A stretch of DNA of 15,139 nucleotides. Source: a virus. The translations under genes and the position numbers were made by a program. The stretch lies in the IMG/VR virus record IMGVR_UViG_3300045988_135748; one strand, 5' to 3'. Below, in pieces: positions 978 to 15,139 of this stretch; within the stretch, counting starts at the first letter, position 1; each line of letters starts with the position of its first letter. A model generated the notes under the pieces. The model ran no database searches. It was not told where the DNA came from and saw only the letters and a program-made list of their open reading frames with translations.

Positions 978-3095
978 ATGGAAATTATAAATGTACCTTT
1001 AAAAGACAATTCCATATCTAAAGAAATAGCATATAATATAAACGATTTTCCTTATAAAAATTTCGCAGACTGCGAAATTGTGACAAAAAAAGGTAAACAC
1101 GGATATTCTGCTTATAATATTCCGGTGGCTTTCGATATAGAAACATCCACAATAGAACCTCACTTTATCTATGATAATCACGGTAGAAAAGTTTATGACA
1201 CGCCGCCGTTCGGCTTTATGTATCATTGGCAATTCTGCCTAATTGATACGGTCATTTTCGGTCGCACATGGGAAGAATTTCAGATTTTCCTTGCGCGATT
1301 AAAAAAATACATGAGTTTGAATGATAAACAACGGCTAGTTATTTATGTACACAATCTTTCTTTTGAATTTCAGTTCATGCAGAACTTTATCACGGTTTCA
1401 GACCTTTTCGCTAAAGACGAACGTAAACCGCTTAAGCTGTCCGGCGGTGGCTTCGAGTGGCGGTGTTCTTATTTTTTATCGAATATGAGTTTGGCTAAAT
1501 TTTGCGAAAATTCTAAAACATGTACGCATGTGAAGCTAAACGGTGAAGAGTTTAATTATAAAAAAATACGTACACCGCGGACGAAATTATTAGAATACGA
1601 AAAAGGTTATTGCTATAATGATGTGCGCGGGTTGTGCGAATGTATCGCAGAGAAGTTAACGGAGTATGATATATTAAGGATTCCGCTCACTTCTACTGGA
1701 TATGTTCGCAACGATTTTCGGAACGCCGTGACCGCTAATCCTATGAACCGTACTATTTTTCTATCTTCTGCGCTATCACCGGAAGAATACACGCAATGCC
1801 GTGACGCGGTGACAGGTGGCGTAGCGCACGCAAATCGGTTTTATTCGAATCAGATTTTAAAAAATCTACGTAGTAGAGATATACAGAGTAGTTATCCGTA
1901 TCAGTCTGAAAGTAAACTTTTTCCGGTTGGTAAATGGTCAAAGATTTCCGTAGAATCGAAAAAAGAACTTGACTTTTTATGTGAAAATTACGCTTGTATT
2001 TTTACGGTTCGCTTTTTCAATATCGAGACAAAAGCAAACACGCCAATTCCATACATCTCTGTATCGAAATGCAAGGAACATTATGAAATTTTAAATGACA
2101 ACGGCAAACTCCTTTCCGCGAAAGAAATTATGACAACAATTACGAACGTAGATTATGAGATAATAAAAGAGGTTTACAACATATCTTCTTTTCAGATTAT
2201 TAAATTCATGTATTGCCGAAAAGAAAGAATGTCACTAGAATACAGACAACAGAATCTCGAATTTTACGAAGCGAAAACAAAATTAAAAGGAATAGAAACC
2301 GCGTACTATGAGTACATGAAAAGCAAAAATAAACTTAATGGTGCATACGGAATGGAAATTACAGATATATGCCATGATATTATAAATTGGAGTGGTGGTG
2401 AATGGTCAAGCGTAAAGGCTAACGCTGACAAATTAAAAAAAGACTTAGAAAGTTTTTATAAATCACGAAAAAATTTTCTCATATACCAGCAGGGTGTATT
2501 CGTTCCTGCGTATGGACGCGCTCAGCTTTATGACGCGATTCGAATAACCGGAAACGATACCGTTTATGTTGACACCGATTCCGATAAATATTTTAAGGAC
2601 CACGAACTAGCGTTCGAGGATTACAATAGAAAACTAATCGAAGAAGCAAAAAAGAGTAACACTTGTCTTGTGGCGAAAAATTCAAAAGGTCAACTGTGCT
2701 ACGCGGGAATATTTGAAAAAGATGCCGAATACAAGACTTTTAAAACGTTAGGTGCGAAAAAATATTGCTATGAAACTTTCGATAAGAAAAAAAATAAGTA
2801 TGTGTTCGGGATTACAGTTGCTGGAATGTCGAAAGAAAAAGGCGCGAAAGCCGTAGGAAATGTCGGAAATTTTAAAATCGGAAATACTTTTGAAAATGTT
2901 GGACGGTCGACAGCTTATTATAATGACACTGATAAAATTTTCAAGATAACCGTAAATGGTGATACGTTCACCACATCAAGTAATATTGGTATTGTGGAAG
3001 CCACATATACTTTAGGGGTAACGGACGAATATTCAAATATTATTATGAGTTGTCAGAAAATAAAAGATTCTGAAAAAATTGAAAAAAATAGTTGA
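978..3095 (+). CDS. Protein-primed family-B DNA polymerase (phi29 gp2-like), 705 aa
   Basis: Exonuclease motifs: ExoI AFDIETS, ExoII HNLSFEF, (S/T)Lx2h MSLAKF, ExoIII YCYNDVRGL. Polymerase motifs: A DIQSSYP, B KNKLNGAYGM, Tx2GR-like VPAYGR, C YVDTDS, and KxY GAKKYCY. Confidence 0.97.
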   Translation: MEIINVPLKDNSISKEIAYNINDFPYKNFADCEIVTKKGKHGYSAYNIPVAFDIETSTIEPHFIYDNHGRKVYDTPPFGFMYHWQFCLIDTVIFGRTWEEFQIFLARLKKYMSLNDKQRLVIYVHNLSFEFQFMQNFITVSDLFAKDERKPLKLSGGGFEWRCSYFLSNMSLAKFCENSKTCTHVKLNGEEFNYKKIRTPRTKLLEYEKGYCYNDVRGLCECIAEKLTEYDILRIPLTSTGYVRNDFRNAVTANPMNRTIFLSSALSPEEYTQCRDAVTGGVAHANRFYSNQILKNLRSRDIQSSYPYQSESKLFPVGKWSKISVESKKELDFLCENYACIFTVRFFNIETKANTPIPYISVSKCKEHYEILNDNGKLLSAKEIMTTITNVDYEIIKEVYNISSFQIIKFMYCRKERMSLEYRQQNLEFYEAKTKLKGIETAYYEYMKSKNKLNGAYGMEITDICHDIINWSGGEWSSVKANADKLKKDLESFYKSRKNFLIYQQGVFVPAYGRAQLYDAIRITGNDTVYVDTDSDKYFKDHELAFEDYNRKLIEEAKKSNTCLVAKNSKGQLCYAGIFEKDAEYKTFKTLGAKKYCYETFDKKKNKYVFGITVAGMSKEKGAKAVGNVGNFKIGNTFENVGRSTAYYNDTDKIFKITVNGDTFTTSSNIGIVEATYTLGVTDEYSNIIMSCQKIKDSEKIEKNS

Positions 3096-3127
3096 CACTT
3101 TATAGAATCTGTACTATTATAATTACA
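3092..3127 (+). promoter_or_regulatory. Strong sigma-A promoter P2 (early block)
   Basis: TTGACA (3092-3097, overlapping the polymerase stop codon), 17-nt spacer, TATTAT (3115-3120). An A-tract lies upstream. The predicted +1 is A3127, which starts AGAAATAAGAACAAG. Confidence 0.75.
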
Positions 3128-3168
3128 GAAATAAGAACAAGACATGATAGAAAGAGAGGTTACAAAAA

Positions 3169-3543
3169 ATGAACAAAACAATATACGAACTTAATGAGGA
3201 AGTAAAAAAGGCAAGCTGGAAAACCCCTACTTGCGAATTAGAACAGATAAAATTAGATATTTCTGAAAAAATGAATGATAATGGAATATCAGCTTTTACT
3301 TATATAGTATTATCAGAGTGGTATGAAAGAATACACCGTTTAACTTTTAAAGAAACAACTAATCCAGATTACATTATTAAAAATGAATTCGGCGAAAAAG
3401 TGGGTTTGATTAAAATCAATAATGTATTTGGAAAAAAAGTATTAGTTGATTTATGGCTTTACCATGAAAAAATAGGTTGCATGAGTATGGATAACGCGAT
3501 TAAAAAATGTAACGAATTATCTTTATACATAAAAGAGGTGTGA
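3169..3543 (+). CDS. Hypothetical early protein, 124 aa
   Basis: It has the consensus RBS AAAGAGAGGT 9 nt before the ATG and is the first gene after P2. I recognise no motif. Confidence 0.75.
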   Translation: MNKTIYELNEEVKKASWKTPTCELEQIKLDISEKMNDNGISAFTYIVLSEWYERIHRLTFKETTNPDYIIKNEFGEKVGLIKINNVFGKKVLVDLWLYHEKIGCMSMDNAIKKCNELSLYIKEV

Positions 3544-3938: not shown

Positions 3939-3958
3939 ATGTTTCACGTGAAACATTT
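3937..3958. promoter_or_regulatory. CACGTG-core palindrome copy A (22-bp perfect)
   Basis: aaaTGTTTCACGTGAAACAttt. It overlaps the stop codon of the upstream gene. A -10-like TAAAAT follows at 3959-3964. Confidence 0.6.
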
Positions 3959-4636: not shown

Positions 4637-4672
4637 TGTTTCACGTGATTCTTGAATGTTTCACGTGAAACT
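4637..4672. promoter_or_regulatory. CACGTG-core palindrome copies B1 and B2 (tandem)
   Basis: TGTTTCACGTGA occurs at 4637-4648 and again at 4657-4668, with centres 20 bp apart. B2 is a 14-bp perfect palindrome (4658-4671). In B1 the right half is degenerate. Confidence 0.6.
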
Positions 4673-4687
4673 TTTAAAGGTGATAAC

Positions 4688-5758
4688 ATGAAAAAAGAAG
4701 AACCGATGCACAATTATGACGAGGGTTTTTTTAATTTAATGGACTACTTAGAAATAACAGATAGAAATCATAAAAAACCGTCTATTCGTATATTTGCCAC
4801 TAATAGAAGTGGCGGAAAAACATACTCTTTATTGTGGTATTTTATAAGAGAATTTCGCGCCGGAAATGAACAATTTGTACTTGAATACCGTACGCGTTCG
4901 GAAATGCTAGGCGTGGATAGTATTTTTTCTTGCGTTGTAGCAGACAAGTTCCCAGATATGGAAATCACTTCGATACCGATTGCTTCCGGCATTATCCGTC
5001 AGATTATGAACCATGATGAAATTATTGGGTTTGCGGTATCAATTTCCGATTGTGACAAGTTAAAAAAATACAGTCCGATTTTTGACAAAGTAAAGCGCGC
5101 AGGCATGGACGAATTCCAGCTTGAAAAAACAGAAGACTATCTAAAAAATGAGGTTGACAAGTATCTGTCCGTTGCATATACTATTTCAAGAGGCGGCGGA
5201 AAACAAGGAAAAGAAGTTGAGTTTTTTTTACTCGGTAACTCTTTTTCGCAGATAAACCCTTATTTGTTACAGTTGGGATGTTATCGCGAGAAGCCGGACA
5301 AAAACGGAATAATACGCGGAGATTCATATATTTACGTTGAAACGGTAAACGAATCAGCGAAAAAGCAGACAAGTGAACTAGGTATTTCAAAAGCATTCGC
5401 AGGAAACCGCCATGTACAGTACGCCACGAAAAACATAGGAATTTATAATGATAATGAATTTATAGCGAATTTGTCTGGAAAAAGTACATACCTTTTAACA
5501 TTTGTGCAGAACGGTGAACGTTTCGCAATTCGCGAATGTCATAAGGACAATTTGCTTTATATTAATCAAAAAATAGATAAGGACGCGAAATGTTTTACCC
5601 TTGATAACGCCGACCATGGCGAAAATACAATACTTTTAACAAGGTTTAGTGGATTAGCGCAGACCTTAAAAGAAGCGTATTCACAAGGTCAGGTGCGTTT
5701 CTGTGATTTGAAATCAAAAGACGCTTTTCTTCATTTAATCGGTAGGGAAATTTTTTAA
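4688..5758 (+). CDS. DNA encapsidation (packaging) ATPase, phi29 gp16-like, 356 aa
   Basis: Walker A ATNRSGGKTYSL (phi29 GARGIGKSYAM) and Walker B AGMDEF (phi29 IVFDEF). Also NEQFVLEYRTRSEM (phi29 GEQFIYVRRYKPEL) and LLGNSFSQINPYLL (phi29 CLSNAVSVVNPYFL). The start is the ATG at 4688 after AAAGGTGA. The TTG at 4652 in the track lies inside the palindrome region. Confidence 0.9.
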   Translation: MKKEEPMHNYDEGFFNLMDYLEITDRNHKKPSIRIFATNRSGGKTYSLLWYFIREFRAGNEQFVLEYRTRSEMLGVDSIFSCVVADKFPDMEITSIPIASGIIRQIMNHDEIIGFAVSISDCDKLKKYSPIFDKVKRAGMDEFQLEKTEDYLKNEVDKYLSVAYTISRGGGKQGKEVEFFLLGNSFSQINPYLLQLGCYREKPDKNGIIRGDSYIYVETVNESAKKQTSELGISKAFAGNRHVQYATKNIGIYNDNEFIANLSGKSTYLLTFVQNGERFAIRECHKDNLLYINQKIDKDAKCFTLDNADHGENTILLTRFSGLAQTLKEAYSQGQVRFCDLKSKDAFLHLIGREIF

Positions 5759-5765
5759 AAAATAG

Positions 5766-5802
5766 TTGACAAAAGATAAAAACAAGTGGTATTGTATATA
5801 TA
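5766..5802 (+). promoter_or_regulatory. Strong sigma-A promoter P3 (only visible promoter ahead of the lysis/structural genes)
   Basis: TTGACA (5766-5771), 18-nt spacer ending TGg, TATTGT (5790-5795). It shares the upstream sequence AAAAATAGTTGACA with P2. The predicted +1 is A5802, which starts AGAAACAAG. Confidence 0.75.
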
Positions 5803-5840
5803 GAAACAAGAAAACAACAGCACAGAAAAGGAGAAAAAAC

Positions 5841-6074
5841 ATGACATCACATGAATTATTAAAATTAACAACCGAAGAAAATTTGAAAAAACTAACAAAA
5901 GAGAAAGAAAATGAATGTGATAAATTCGAAGTTTACGCACATTTAAAAATATTAGAAAAAAGGTTAGCACAAGCGGAAGTTATAGAAAAAGACATTGAAA
6001 TTAAGTATCTTTTAGAGGCAAGATACGTATCTCTAACCGGATTTATTTTTAACTATATTCGTAACTTATACTAG
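5841..6074 (+). CDS. Hypothetical small K/E-rich coiled-coil protein, 77 aa
   Basis: The start is the ATG at 5841 after AAAAGGAG. The TTG at 5766 in the track is the -35 box of P3. The C-terminus is hydrophobic (VSLTGFIFNYIRNLY). Confidence 0.6.
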   Translation: MTSHELLKLTTEENLKKLTKEKENECDKFEVYAHLKILEKRLAQAEVIEKDIEIKYLLEARYVSLTGFIFNYIRNLY

Positions 6075-6075
6075 G

Positions 6076-6195
6076 TATATACCGCGTAGCAAATTTCAAT
6101 CACGTGGGAAAACACGTTTTAGCCGGAGTGATTACCGGACGCGGTTTATATAAAACAGCGGCGCGGTGGCAATCTTAAGCCACCGTAAAACCGCG
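6076..6195 (+). other. GC-rich structured intergenic element (candidate RNA leader/switch or pRNA-like ncRNA)
   Basis: A three-way junction is formed by stem 6076-6087/6139-6152 (12 bp with a 2-nt bulge), hairpin 6102-6106/6113-6117 and hairpin 6123-6126/6135-6138. A further hairpin is 6163-6170/6179-6186, extended by 6158-6161/6191-6194. Four CCGCG/CGCGG segments allow alternative pairings. Confidence 0.4.
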
Positions 6196-6214
6196 AAAAA
6201 ATAGGAGAGTGGAA

Positions 6215-6622
6215 ATGAAAACAGAATGGAGTATTTTACTAAGTGGATTAGTAGGGATTTTTAGTCAGATTTTTGGCGGGTTCGATAACTTGTTTATCGG
6301 TTTACTTGTAATTATGGCAGTCGATTACGCAACCGGAATTATAGCCGCAGTTCTTGGAAAAAGTGGCAAAACAAAAAACGGTCACTTGTCAAGCAAGGCA
6401 GGTTTTAAAGGAATTTTGAAAAAATTGACAATGTTACTTTTCGTGTGTATGACAAAATATGCAGGTGAAATGCTTGACATAAAAGGATTGCGCGATATGG
6501 TTATCACATTTTTCGCGGTGAATGACTGTATTAGCGTTTTAGAAAATACCAGCAGAATTGGTGTAAAATATCCGAAAAAACTGAAAAACATGTTAGAGGA
6601 TTTATTAGAAAGAGAGGAATAA
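6215..6622 (+). CDS. Holin (Phage_holin_4_1 / TcdE-like family), 135 aa
   Basis: Family signature: DYATGIIAAVL...SSKAGFKGILKKL...NDCISVLENTSRIGV..PKKL. It has predicted transmembrane segments and a charged C-terminus. The start is the ATG at 6215 after AGGAGAG. Confidence 0.9.
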   Translation: MKTEWSILLSGLVGIFSQIFGGFDNLFIGLLVIMAVDYATGIIAAVLGKSGKTKNGHLSSKAGFKGILKKLTMLLFVCMTKYAGEMLDIKGLRDMVITFFAVNDCISVLENTSRIGVKYPKKLKNMLEDLLEREE

Positions 6623-9547: not shown

Positions 9548-9563
9548 TGTTTCACGTGAAACA
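9548..9563. promoter_or_regulatory. CACGTG-core palindrome copy C (16-bp perfect)
   Basis: TGTTTCACGTGAAACA lies 2 nt after the capsid stop codon and 8 nt before the RBS of the next gene. Confidence 0.6.
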
Positions 9564-11177: not shown

Positions 11178-11199
11178 AATGTTTCACGTGAAACATTTT
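11176..11199. promoter_or_regulatory. CACGTG-core palindrome copy D (24-bp perfect)
   Basis: aaaaTGTTTCACGTGAAACAtttt overlaps the tail-knob stop codon. Confidence 0.6.
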
Positions 11200-14368: not shown

Positions 14369-14403
14369 TTTTCTAGGGAATTGATTCCCTAGAAAATTTT
14401 TTT
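14369..14403. terminator. Rho-independent, probably bidirectional terminator
   Basis: A 12-bp stem TTTTCTAGGGAA/TTCCCTAGAAAA (14369-14380/14385-14396) has the loop TTGA and is followed by T7. The upstream A-run gives a T-run on the other strand. Confidence 0.85.
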
Positions 14404-14423: not shown

Positions 14424-14460
14424 TTGACATTTTTATAGAAGGCGTGGTATTATAATTATA
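14424..14460 (+). promoter_or_regulatory. Strong sigma-A promoter P4 (right-end gene)
   Basis: TTGACA (14424-14429), 18-nt spacer ending TGg, TATTAT (14448-14453). The predicted +1 is A14460, which starts AGAAACAAG. Confidence 0.75.
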
Positions 14461-14501
14461 GAAACAAGGAAATGATAAAACAGAAAAGAGAGGTAGAAAA
14501 A

Positions 14502-14798
14502 ATGTATACTTACAAGGCAAACGGAAACTACACACAAGAAATCTTAGAAAACGGCAACGTGCTTAGAACTTTTGAAACTGACGTAGCAGGTGTATATATC
14601 TTAGCAGAATATACAATGTTAAAATGTGGCGCAACATTGACCGCGCACTATAGCTTAGTAGCCGCGAAAACACAAAACTTTCAATCGAGAAAGTCAATAA
14701 AAAACGACCCTATCCATGGAACATATGAAATGGCTTCAACTATAGTGTATGAAGAGATAGACGGAGATATTGAATTACCGGAATATCTCGAACGGTAA
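14502..14798 (+). CDS. Hypothetical right-end early protein, 98 aa
   Basis: The start is the ATG at 14502, 9 nt after AAAGAGAGG; the track's ATG at 14472 lacks an RBS. It has its own promoter. The stop codon lies 1 nt from the ITR boundary. I recognise no motif. Confidence 0.7.
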   Translation: MYTYKANGNYTQEILENGNVLRTFETDVAGVYILAEYTMLKCGATLTAHYSLVAAKTQNFQSRKSIKNDPIHGTYEMASTIVYEEIDGDIELPEYLER

Positions 14799-14802
14799 TT
14801 TT

Positions 14803-14861
14803 CGAACACGTGTTCCATTTCTCGGCTGTTCGCCGCCCGCGGACAGTCGAACGTTTGTTCT
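14803..14861. promoter_or_regulatory. Right-ITR copies of the SOS-box-like sites
   Basis: CGAACACGTGTTCC (14803-14816) contains the perfect palindrome GAACACGTGTTC. The second site is CGAACGTTTGTTCT (14848-14861). Confidence 0.4.
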
Positions 14862-15000
14862 AATTTATTATCAGAAATCTTTATGAATTGTCAGAATATT
14901 TTGAAAACAGTTGTCGAAATCGAATATTGTCTGATAATTCATTGTCTAAATTGCACAATTTTCGTGCAGGTTTCAAGCTAAAATTTGTTGAAATTGCCTA

Positions 15001-15029
15001 TTGACATTTACGCAGGTTTGTGCTAGTGT
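15001..15029 (+). promoter_or_regulatory. Candidate outward-facing sigma-A promoter inside ITR-R
   Basis: TTGACA (15001-15006), 17-nt spacer ending TGc, TAGTGT (15024-15029). The predicted +1 is near 15036, which would give a ~104-nt run-off to the genome end. Confidence 0.3.
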
Positions 15030-15139
15030 CCGTGTGTGGCGGACAAATGGGGGAAAAGTGTCCGTGTGTTGCGTACATATTACAGCAGTCCGGATACGAT
15101 CATGATGACCAGCGGATTGAATTCTGCAAACGGAATGCT

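Follow-up and report, generated by a model that had tools for sequence, protein, structure and literature searches.

The window, by which we mean the whole stretch of DNA analysed (IMGVR_UViG_3300045988_135748, 15,139 nt), is the complete linear 15.1-kb genome of a phi29-like podovirus with inverted terminal repeats of 340 bp. It encodes a protein-primed PolB, a gp16-type ATPase, a phi29-type capsid and upper-collar and lower-collar proteins, and PHROG profiles were matched for the upper collar, the lower collar, the major head protein and PolB. The sequences of its clade derive from human-gut metagenomes and the host is not Bacillus; for host assignment, an ATPase scan of genome contigs returned no relative. 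A blastn search of phage genomes gave no DNA relative of the window, the sole match being a 34-nt palindrome shared with Listeria phage contigs, and a tRNA/tmRNA scan of the window returned zero.

The element under study is a ~120-nt non-coding stretch that lies 317 nt 3' of the ATPase stop codon, on the same strand and with one small ORF between. The features of the region are as follows, with the basis of each in brackets.

4652..5758, + strand: gp16-type DNA-packaging ATPase gene (PF05894 and PHROG 2150)
5766..5795, + strand: sigma-A-type promoter, TTGACA-18-TATTGT with an upstream TG (promoter scan, 10/12 matches plus TG)
5841..6074, + strand: small 77-aa ORF with a strong SD
6075..6087, + strand: P1 5' strand (A-helix analogue), GUAUA.U.ACCGCGU (MFE and compensatory pairs)
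6088..6097, + strand: single-stranded junction linker AGCAAAUUUC (variable in length and sequence in relatives, from alignments)
6098..6103, + strand: AAUCAC, candidate 'right-hand' loop (invariant; overlaps hairpin 1 from the 5' side)
6102..6117, + strand: hairpin 1 (E-like), ACGUG-GGAAAA-CACGU (MFE; C6103U+G6116A in L004)
6123..6138, + strand: hairpin 2 (D-like), CCGG-AGUGAUUA-CCGG (MFE; invariant stem)
6139..6151, + strand: P1 3' strand, ACGCGGU.U.UAUAU, then AAAA (MFE and compensatory pairs)
6158..6194, + strand: hairpin 3 (z = -4.1; U6167C+A6182G; G-C to G-U in L105 and L106)
6215..6622, + strand: holin gene (Pfam PF05105, E 5e-31)

The product of the ATPase gene, whose true start is probably a few codons 3' of 4652, matches Pfam PF05894 Podovirus_Gp16 (E 1.8e-17, profile positions 24-319 of 331) and PHROG 2150 (E 2.5e-43). 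The promoter at 5766 is one of three paralogous promoter-leader regions belonging to the repeat families D3 and D4, which connect 3099-3171, 5786-5830 and 14432-14504, and the operon around the element runs from this promoter to a terminator at ~14369-14396. Within it about 270 nt and one ORF separate the promoter from the element downstream; the UAG stop of the small ORF abuts the first base of P1, and the holin SD, AGGAG at 6203-6207, is 8 nt past hairpin 3. Neither a promoter nor a terminator of the element's own was found, and no U-tract follows it. A possible promoter just 5' of the element, with TATACT at 6067-6072, was rejected: relatives do not conserve it, and it lacks a proper -35.

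The predicted fold of the element

On the + strand, 6075-6194 is predicted to form a three-way junction of P1, hairpin 1 and hairpin 2, followed by a third hairpin, which divides the element into a 77-nt core and a 37-nt hairpin 3. The MFE fold of 6070-6215 is exactly this junction plus hairpin 3, at -47.3 kcal/mol (z = -4.3), an energy matched by 0 of 200 shuffles, and the MFE and centroid structures of the element are the same; taken separately, the core has a z-score of -3.2 and hairpin 3 one of -4.1. The GC content is 48%, against 36.5% for the genome, which places the element in the top 3.4% of 120-nt windows. The features listed for this gap in the initial annotation, namely its GC-richness, the junction, the hairpins and the lack of a T-tract, are all present. 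The closing stem of 12 bp was likewise there, although its coordinates had been given one base off: the 12 pairs lie between 6075-6087 and 6139-6151, around a U6080-U6146 mismatch.

Hairpin 1 pairs ACGUG (6102-6106) with CACGU (6113-6117) beneath a purine-rich, invariant loop, and hairpin 2 has a 4-bp stem of two CCGG strands (6123-6126 and 6135-6138) with an 8-nt loop. Hairpin 3, with the sequence GCGG(6158-6161).C.GCGGUGGC-AAUCUUAA-GCCACCGU.AAAA.CCGC(6191-6194), consists of a GC-rich 12-bp stem and the loop AAUCUUAA, without a U-tract; it sits where relatives have a terminator, or where phi29 has domain II.

The hairpin 2 loop contains GUGAUU (6128-6133), the candidate 'left-hand' loop, and this segment is complementary to AAUCAC at 6098-6103 over six contiguous Watson-Crick pairs, for which the chance probability is about 0.0015. 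These two segments had been overlooked in the initial annotation, where no obvious complementary loop pair was seen. Two of the six candidate kissing positions, A6102 and C6103, also belong to hairpin 1, where the pair C6103-G6116 covaries. The loop of hairpin 3 carries AAUC too, which makes the partner of GAUU ambiguous.

Conservation and covariation in the clade of the window

Comparison of 13 distinct relatives, sampled from an ATPase cluster of 203 members, with 500 shuffles as the covariation control, found 99.3% of the cells of the structure paired. Four pairs show compensatory double changes: C6083U+G6143A and C6085U+G6141A in P1, C6103U+G6116A in hairpin 1 and U6167C+A6182G in hairpin 3, hairpin 2 being invariant. 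The observed pairing together with four compensated pairs was reached by none of the 500 shuffles, and the structure goes well beyond chance. It is only on the + strand that G-U pairs are maintained or arise (6075-6151, GU/AU; 6163-6186, GU; 6169-6180, GC to GU), and since these would be C-A on the other strand, the + strand is the functional one.

No other 100-nt stretch of the genome is as conserved as the element, which has an identity of 0.97 against a genome mean of 0.78; hairpin 3 has an identity of 0.98. AAUCAC is invariant in 13/13 distinct relatives, as are the hairpin 2 stem and GUGAUU (13/13), only the last loop base varying, from A to G in L113. Both candidate kissing segments are thus without variants that could show covariation in the 13 distinct sequences. 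Loops that stay invariant while stems change point to a binding partner rather than to a simple stability hairpin. The adjoining ORF at 5841..6074 evolves fast, measuring 49-77 aa in relatives, with an identity of 0.80 compared with 0.95 for the RNA element. Judged from these alignments, the element is a folded + strand RNA under very strong purifying selection.

A GC-regressed MFE scan combined with the conservation profile revealed no other comparably ranked conserved structured non-coding region outside the terminal repeats. A covariance model of the window clade, R1, was run on 93 sources and matched the close clade alone, and a degenerate DNA pattern gave 12 matches in metagenome contigs, of which those in L009 and L017 are real and the rest chance. 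L105 and L106 carry an extra gene of 106 aa between the element and the holin gene, which indicates that the element travels with the ATPase side.

The CCGCG and CGCGG repeats had been taken as a sign of mutually exclusive, switch-like helices. The repeats exist, but the alternative helices show 0 compensatory changes and 7 broken cells among the relatives, no better than shuffles, and the switch reading is unsupported. Neither an anti-SD sequence nor a terminator was found at the element, and there was no Rfam riboswitch match.

ATPase-linked RNAs in distant relatives

We fetched 79 distant relatives whose ATPase is 30-35% identical to that of the window. In 79/79 the strand of the gp16-type ATPase gene encodes, just 3' of it, an RNA of ~115 nt; the covariance model R2 matches 77 of them (E from 1e-18 to 7e-4) and a further model, R3, adds the last two. 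These RNAs are built alike: a helix closes the ends, one arm carries an internal loop, and the loop of a second hairpin covaries with that internal loop. Covariation in the helices is strong: pairing is kept in 93% of cells against 68% in shuffles, and double-change cells number 497 against 141. The covariation of the internal loop 5' of the E hairpin with the D-hairpin loop is seen in the kissing pairs 43-107 (AU38/UA13/GC5/UG3/CG2) and 44-106 (GC51/CG9/AU6). The transcription unit ends with the RNA, after which come a strong terminator and convergent genes. Four of these genomes (L025, L034, L039 and L068) have a small ORF between ATPase and RNA, as the window does.

Apart from phi29-like phages, no kind of phage is known to require a pRNA (PMC5066667), and a pRNA is defined by the order A-C-loop-E-C'-D-A' and by covariation of the right-hand loop with the left-hand loop (PMC5066667, PMC12670572). 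By the evidence of its alignment, the distant family reproduces both this order and this loop covariation. Within the searchable literature, pRNA has been reported from Bacillus and Cytobacillus phages only (PMC5066667, PMC11476376, PMC12670572), in agreement with the remark in the initial annotation that it was described only in Bacillus relatives of phi29, and we found no description of the ATPase-linked family in Rfam 15 or in that literature. An Rfam scan of nine distant loci and of L073 8640-8800 likewise gave no relevant family, but two tRNAs in relatives.

Counterparts occur in cultured phages. CS229P1, a Clostridium symbiosum phage, belongs to the R2/R3 family (OP172772 10552-10668). 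R2 and R3 miss the Bacillus pRNAs and also HM2, CI461P1 and CH17P1, yet a pRNA-like design is common to the Clostridium phages HM2, CS229P1 and CI461P1 and the Hungatella phage CH17P1. The HM2 RNA, unannotated, lies right after the ATPase stop (LT600745, about 6091-6200), has the loops GUAGU/ACUAC and shows 3 compensatory changes against L117; in CI461P1 and CH17P1 the RNA comes upstream of the ATPase, and its loops are ACCA/UGGU and GCUA/UAGC.

The element resembles the R2/R3 family in several respects. Both start at or just after a stop codon and have 5' GGUAU and AUAUAAA 3' ends; both carry an NNNCA-C motif before a hairpin whose loop contains GAAA, a second hairpin with a CGG/CCG-type stem and a loop UGNNN complementary to NNNCA-C, and a stable hairpin after the core. 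AAUCAC aligns by position with the RWWGCA-C internal loop of the family, and where the family has AAGCA-C and UGCUU the element has AAUCA-C and UGAUU, a swap of G-C for U-A with respect to the family consensus. The purine-rich loop of hairpin 1 and the 4-bp stem and 8-nt loop of hairpin 2 are further points of likeness. The helix order and loop complementarity of the family are present, whereas the C helix is absent and the junction linker variable; the element is short by about 38 nt, corresponding to the inner closing helix and the C helix, its next hairpin has no U-tract, and its loops are invariant where those of the family covary. A C helix of AAA/UUU within the element was considered and discarded, as the linker is not conserved. 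With filters off, R2 aligned only the terminal motifs GGUAU...AUAUAAA of the window (6074-6154, 8.7 bits, E 2.8), and R3 found nothing in it at E up to 5.

HM2 offers a similar comparison. Its gene order (TP, Pol, small ORFs, ATPase, RNA, late genes, on one strand) is that of the window, and its RNA shares with the element the GGUA...UAUAAAA ends, the three-way junction and the complementarity of internal loop and D loop, which in HM2 read GUAGU and ACUAC. The HM2 RNA differs in having a C helix, in directly following the ATPase stop and in being followed by a true terminator and then a promoter, and there is no sequence similarity between the two.

A probable compact packaging RNA and its alternatives

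In phi29, domain I of pRNA is a discrete transcript of about 117-120 nt with its own promoter and terminator; the RNA is bound to the prohead, is required for packaging of DNA-gp3 and is missing from mature virions, and a three-base CCA bulge in its A helix is needed for ATPase docking. To our knowledge, pRNA is alone among RNAs in serving as a structural component of a viral DNA-packaging motor, and it has become a workhorse of RNA nanotechnology.

The element, too, belongs to a phi29-like protein-primed podovirus with a gp16-type ATPase. As in phi29 pRNA, the 5' and 3' ends pair into the helix that closes a two-armed three-way junction, 4-6 nt on the 5' side of the first arm are complementary to the second arm's loop, and an extra 3' hairpin follows the core, comparable with phi29 domain II, for a total of ~120 nt when hairpin 3 is counted. 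Unlike phi29 pRNA, the element has a core of only 77 nt, where phi29 and the gut family have some 115-120 nt, and no C helix, its P1 carries only the 1x1 U-U mismatch 6080/6146 in place of a 3-nt (CCA-type) bulge, and it lies inside an operon beside the ATPase rather than forming a separate promoter-to-terminator gene near the genome end.

The Infernal scan against Rfam suggested in the initial annotation was negative for the pRNA family: RF00044 'Phage_pRNA', which represents the system of the Bacillus phages phi29, PZA, M2/Nf, B103, SF5 and GA-1 and newer Bacillus/Cytobacillus phages, had no match at the gathering score or at E up to 10 in the whole window or in 6050-6220. This is a weak test, as the same model finds phi29 pRNA (145 bits) and misses the annotated pRNA of GA-1. 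Other Rfam scans of the window and the element gave only spurious miRNA and snoRNA matches. A hammerhead or other ribozyme, in which a three-way junction is combined with a loop contact, was dismissed for want of an Rfam match and of core motifs at the junction.

We favour the reading, at a probability of about 0.6, that the element encodes this phage's counterpart of phi29 pRNA, a packaging RNA of compact, pRNA-like form. In favour of this reading are the position, topology, terminal motifs and loop logic that the element shares with the ATPase-linked RNAs. A functional analogue of phi29 pRNA had been the third of the three hypotheses in the initial annotation, offered with the reservation that no obvious complementary loops were seen; the comparative evidence favours it among the three. 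What stands against it is the lack of statistical homology to Rfam pRNA or to the R2 and R3 models, the short core, the missing C helix and P1 bulge, the lack of a promoter and terminator of its own, the overlap of AAUCAC with hairpin 1 and the second AAUC in the hairpin 3 loop.

Packaging could then proceed as follows. The RNA would be cut out of the polycistronic transcript begun at the 5766 promoter; lying inside the operon and 8 nt from the holin SD, a discrete RNA would need processing. Copies may join head-to-tail through AAUC(A)/(U)GAUU pairing, the strand 5' of hairpin 1 in one with the hairpin 2 loop of another, and the joined copies would encircle the portal of the empty prohead as a ring. 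P1, perhaps lengthened by hairpin 3, would dock the ATPase, which would pump in the terminal-protein-linked DNA, and the RNA would depart from the particle once packaging is done. The N-terminus of the portal protein was checked for an RKR-type RNA-binding motif and showed none clearly, which is uninformative.

An alternative is that the element acts in cis on the late and lysis transcript, as a leader, a put-like processive antiterminator or an RNase processing or stability structure, and would set the level or timing of the holin, endolysin and structural genes read from the 5766 promoter. Its place in the 5' part of that operon is compatible with such a role, as are the lack of a U-tract after it, its end 8 nt before the holin SD, the high stability of hairpin 3 and the failure to find a dedicated promoter or terminator. 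A leader that times lysis, one of the earlier proposals, is made less plausible by the 106-aa gene that parts the element from the holin in L105 and L106, by the absence of an anti-SD sequence, by switch helices that substitutions break uncompensated, and by the pattern of invariant loops and changing stems. A put-like element would resemble the put RNA of HK022 and other cis-acting processive antitermination RNAs in that stem-loops made from a strong promoter lie upstream of a long hairpin-containing operon. However, put works on the very RNA polymerase transcribing it, just 3' of its promoter, whereas ~270 nt and an ORF lie between the element and its promoter, and the GTTTCACGTGAAAC palindromes proposed as its terminator targets also occur upstream of it, at 3941 and 4658. 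Moreover, the RNAs of the same architecture in relatives close their transcription units, directly before a strong terminator and convergent genes, and cannot regulate downstream genes. Taken together, we regard a cis-acting role as unlikely.

The element could instead be a trans-acting structured RNA outside packaging, such as a phage sRNA or a decoy for a host or phage protein, its resemblance to pRNA being convergent. Strong sequence-level conservation in all three loops would suit this, and neither the databases nor the models of the ATPase-linked family recognise the element; but the element agrees with the ATPase-linked RNAs of relatives in position, topology and loop complementarity, and a gp16-type phage whose genome has no comparable conserved structured non-coding region outside the terminal repeats would, on this account, lack any candidate for a packaging RNA. 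We hold it to be decidedly improbable. That the locus is a DNA-level signal (a cruciform, a protein-binding site or a site of replication or recombination) or a chance fold in a GC-rich spacer is very hard to credit: the region is indeed GC-rich and its reverse strand also folds well (z = -3.6), but the G-U pairs maintained or gained are confined to the + strand, compensatory double changes preserve the pairing, and no shuffle reached the observed energy or covariation. Terminal-protein-primed genomes, furthermore, need no internal pac or cos site.

Beyond this phage, we see even odds that the element, the R2/R3 family and the RNAs of HM2, CI461P1 and CH17P1 together make up an ancient, since diverged pRNA superfamily that is genetically linked to the gp16-type ATPase gene in all phi29-like phages of gut Clostridia. 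The RNA ring would then be ancestral and general for the lineage, and its smallest natural form would be that of the clade of the window, where the core has 77 nt and a separate hairpin may stand in for part of the A helix. The candidates are a strongly conserved RNA of 77+37 nt from an uncultured gut phage and a well-supported family of ~115 nt with covarying kissing loops in 79 relatives, and the unannotated counterparts in cultured CS229P1, HM2, CI461P1 and the Hungatella phage CH17P1 make experiments possible. If the proposal is true, the element would define the minimum size of a pRNA, dozens of natural variants of the kissing loop and three-way junction would become available for study, and RNA-dependent packaging would be ancestral to the phi29-like lineage rather than an oddity of Bacillus phages.

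Genome context, fold and conservation of the element

Perfect inverted terminal repeats of 340 bp (1-340 and 14800-15139) identify the window as a complete linear genome of 15,139 bp, in which all genes lie on the + strand and a long operon ends at an intrinsic terminator at about 14369-14396. On the basis of gene content and order the phage is a phi29-like podovirus. Its nearest DNA relatives come from human-gut metagenomes; a DNA search of phage genomes and an ATPase scan of genome contigs found no cultured relative, and the latter scan found no host.

Features of the genome and of the element (helices as in the MFE and centroid fold)
First in gene order, + strand: putative terminal protein
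978-3095, + strand: protein-primed family-B DNA polymerase
Between the polymerase and ATPase genes, + strand: small ORFs, one weakly phi29-SSB-like
4652-5758, + strand: gp16-type packaging ATPase (PF05894, E 1.8e-17)
5766-5795, + strand: consensus-like promoter
5841-6074, + strand: 77-aa ORF, directly before the element
6075-6087 / 6139-6151, + strand: P1
6102-6117, + strand: hairpin 1
6123-6138, + strand: hairpin 2
6158-6194, + strand: hairpin 3
6215-6622, + strand: holin, after the element
After the holin, + strand: amidase endolysin
After the endolysin, + strand: phi29-type major head, tail, upper-collar and lower-collar proteins

The MFE and centroid folds of 6070-6215 (+ strand) are identical, comprising P1 and hairpins 1-3 with a folding energy of -47.3 kcal/mol (z = -4.3); folded separately, the 77-nt core (P1 with hairpins 1 and 2) gives z = -3.2 and hairpin 3 gives z = -4.1. 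The GC content of the element is 48% versus 36.5% for the genome. These are the helices described in the initial annotation, all of whose features are present in the sequence, and hairpin 3 indeed lacks the T-tract that was reported missing there. Covariation and conservation among relatives, the proposed check on that reading, support the structure. Fourteen further copies from phages with ATPases >90% identical to that of the window yield 13 distinct sequences, whose alignment has standard pairs in 99.3% of cells and both-sided changes at four pairs, two in P1 (C6083U+G6143A and C6085U+G6141A), one in hairpin 1 (C6103U+G6116A) and one in hairpin 3 (U6167C+A6182G). None of 500 shuffles attained these pairing and covariation values, and slid controls brought pairing down to 24-47%. 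The G-U pairs 6075-6151 and 6163-6186, plus 6169-6180 in the close relatives L105 and L106, are compatible with the + strand only. In a whole-genome alignment of the window with three near-complete relatives, identity is 95% for the element and averages 78% over the genome, and the most conserved 100-nt segment of the genome begins at 6101 (97%); the corresponding values are 80% for the upstream 77-aa ORF and about 86% for the ATPase, capsid and polymerase genes. The loops and hairpin 2 are invariant among the 13 sequences, and the junction linker 6088-6097 differs in length and sequence. These data show the element to be an RNA structure of the + strand that is more strongly constrained than any protein-coding segment in the genome.

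A switch between mutually exclusive helices had also been proposed, pairing CCGCG at 6082 with CGCGG at 6162 and CGCGG at 6140 with CCGCG at 6191. The words exist, but their pairing is unsupported, as relatives show no double changes and seven unpaired cells, no different from shuffles; their substitutions are compensated in P1 only and break the alternative helices. Conversely, the complementary loop pair described as absent can be found: AAUCAC (6098-6103), which adjoins hairpin 1 on the 5' side and extends into its first two pairs, exactly complements GUGAUU (6128-6133) within the 8-nt loop of hairpin 2. The chance of at least six contiguous Watson-Crick pairs between random 7-nt and 8-nt segments of matching composition is 0.0015. 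AAUC is present in the hairpin 3 loop too.

Some close relatives carry an extra gene of 103-106 aa between element and holin (L105, L106; 2713-3033), which shows that the element keeps its place beside the ATPase even where the locus has a gene inserted before the holin.

Several other features of the genome were observed. Each terminal repeat contains a GC-rich hairpin (290-318 / 14822-14850), with sub-repeats at 60-115. Three paralogous promoter-plus-leader regions (3092-3171, 5766-5830 and 14424-14504) have TTGACA and an extended -10 in common, along with 45-73 nt of similar sequence downstream. They precede the early block of small ORFs and ATPase, the late block and the last gene, respectively, which suggests common regulation. 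A long near-perfect hairpin within the polymerase coding sequence (1636-1709) ranks first in the genome for GC-corrected folding energy and gives a spurious match to Rfam mir-2763 (31.6 bits, E 0.0034).

An ATPase-linked RNA family in distant relatives

The next relatives by ATPase, sampled as 79 phage contigs from IMG/VR, reach an identity of only 30-35%. In many of these the ATPase is the sole gene on its strand, and in 62 of the 79 a gap of 120-300 nt, ORF-free by a crude mask, directly follows its stop codon. Folding of the gaps gives an RNA of ~115 nt, after which comes a strong intrinsic terminator. The covariance model R2, for which 42 of these RNAs were used, matches exactly one site per locus in 77/79 (E 1e-18 to 7e-4), in every case just 3' of the ATPase gene on the same strand, and the refined model R3 picked up the remaining two (79/79). 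In the model-derived alignment of 71 distinct rows, 93.4% of cells pair versus 68.1% in shuffles, with 497 versus 141 double-change cells and a covariation score of 0.625 versus 0.153; slid controls pair at 30-44%. The family has no entry in Rfam 15. Members include L073 8658-8775, L046 9966-10083 and, in the cultured Clostridium phage CS229P1 (host C. symbiosum), L102 4030-4146 (OP172772 10552-10668), an unannotated gap after the packaging gene that R2 matches with 83.8 bits.

Read 5' to 3', the family RNAs begin with a long closing helix (GGUAUCU.../...AGAUAUAAA), which carries a 3-nt bulge, and a three-way junction. Next come the C helix, an asymmetric internal loop with the consensus RWWGCA, an E hairpin whose loop contains GAAA, C', a D hairpin and the returning closing strand; this is the helix order of phi29 pRNA, the prohead packaging RNA (PMC5066667). 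Covariation also joins the internal loop to the D loop like an additional helix, at pairs 43-107 (AU 38, UA 13, GC 5, UG 3, CG 2), 44-106 (GC 51, CG 9, AU 6) and 45-105 (CG 62, UA 4, GC 1). Examples are UAGCA/UGCUA, UUGCA/UGCAA, AUGCA/UGCAU, CUGUA/UACAG, GUCUG/CAGAC and AACC/GGUU, the last being the pair of phi29 pRNA itself.

RNAs of the same design occur in further cultured phages. In Clostridium phage HM2 (LT600745), whose one-strand gene order is that of the window, the RNA lies directly 3' of the ATPase stop (L101 6091-6245), ends in GGUAAG...CUUAUAAAA, and has a C helix, an E hairpin and a D hairpin, with GUAGU as the internal loop and ACUAC as the D loop; a terminator and then a promoter come next. 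A 92% relative has three compensatory changes and keeps both loops. In CI461P1 (L114 about 1380-1470; loops ACCA/UGGU; promoter TGcTATAAT) and Hungatella phage CH17P1 (L115 about 1300-1405; loops GCUA/UAGC) the RNA lies upstream of the ATPase gene, between it and the polymerase gene. Neither R2 nor R3 detects these three RNAs, and the Rfam pRNA model (RF00044) finds phi29 pRNA but misses the annotated GA-1 pRNA; a missing covariance-model match therefore says little against kinship in this class of RNAs, whose known members have only about 12% sequence identity (PMC5066667).

Among the distant loci, the family member in L067 (8219-8324; 51.7 bits) has a U/C-rich stretch in place of the C/E arm and retains the closing helix and D hairpin; the cause is either a natural deletion or an artefact of assembly. 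Two ~15-kb genomes carry tRNA genes (L032 13594-13674; L079 13934-14049), the latter unusually long at 116 nt, which may contain an intron or insert. In L025 and L039 a Cys-rich ORF of ~52 aa (CPYV...CQCCQC) separates the ATPase stop from the RNA, a position parallel to that of the 77-aa ORF.

A perfect palindrome, GTTTCACGTGAAAC (core of AATGTTTCACGTGAAACATT), lies at gene boundaries of the window at 3941-3954, 4658-4671, 9549-9562 and 11181-11194, four copies versus 0.01 expected. The identical 14-mer was found in 40 of 116 fetched loci at 1-7 copies per genome, including phages with ATPases only ~30% identical as well as HM2 (L101) and CS229P1 (L102); other carriers are L023, L027, L031, L032, L033, L041, L044, L047, L048 and L077. 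It often flanks the ATPase-linked RNA, between ATPase stop and RNA or just past the terminator, and the sole phage-database DNA match of the window is a 34-nt identity at this palindrome in unannotated Listeria phage contigs. Possible roles are that of an operator bound by a conserved regulator and that of a hairpin for processing or attenuation of RNA.

A candidate packaging RNA and its alternatives

Like the family RNAs, the element is linked to the ATPase gene, lying 317 nt downstream with a small ORF between; in L025, L034, L039 and L068 the family RNA likewise follows a small ORF, 190-250 nt after the ATPase stop. Both begin directly after a stop codon (UAG|GUAUAUACC in the window, UAG|GUAUCU in L056, L073 and L088) and the two ends of both read GGUAU...AUAUAAA. 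AAUCA|C occupies the site of family AAGCA|C, and UGAUU that of UGCUU. The loop of the first hairpin is rich in purines, the second hairpin combines a CCGG stem with an 8-nt loop, and the stable hairpin 3 stands where relatives have a terminator. Unlike the family, the element has a core of 77 nt rather than ~115 nt, no C helix or inner part of the closing helix, no 3-nt bulge, no U-tract on hairpin 3 and no promoter of its own. R2 aligns only the terminal motifs (6074-6154, 8.7 bits, E 2.8, not significant). Because it fails to match in covariance model, size, bulge and transcription unit, we do not class the element as a phi29-type pRNA.

We nevertheless consider it probable (roughly 0.6) that the element is a compact pRNA-like packaging RNA, a proposal that rests on its architecture, on synteny and on the covariation seen across the family of RNAs in relatives. 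The main rival, that it acts in cis as a leader, antiterminator or processing element, agrees with its position in the operon and with the missing terminator, yet leaves unexplained the invariance of the loops, the failure of the switch test, the gene inserted before the holin in L105 and L106, the palindromes upstream and the fact that equivalent RNAs end their transcription units in relatives; we regard it as unlikely. That the element is some other trans-acting RNA appears quite improbable, and a DNA-level or chance origin very unlikely.

A review from 2016, one on phi29-like phages from 2024 and a structure-based search from 2025, which contributed 12 further pRNAs, place these RNAs only in Bacillus and Cytobacillus phages (PMC5066667, PMC11476376, PMC12670572). 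In the full-text literature searched, whose coverage is partial so that earlier work is possible, pRNA-like RNAs are not described for phi29-like phages of Clostridium or the gut; the ~115-nt family and its CS229P1 copy are previously unannotated. As a packaging RNA, and by analogy with phi29, the element would be freed from a transcript that begins at the 5766 promoter or reads through from promoters further upstream, and its copies would multimerise via AAUC(A)/(U)GAUU pairing, probably with 4-5 loop-loop pairs as in phi29, since hairpin 1 claims A6102 and C6103 (covariation 6103-6116). The RNA would then be seated on the portal, holding the ATPase through P1 and perhaps hairpin 3.
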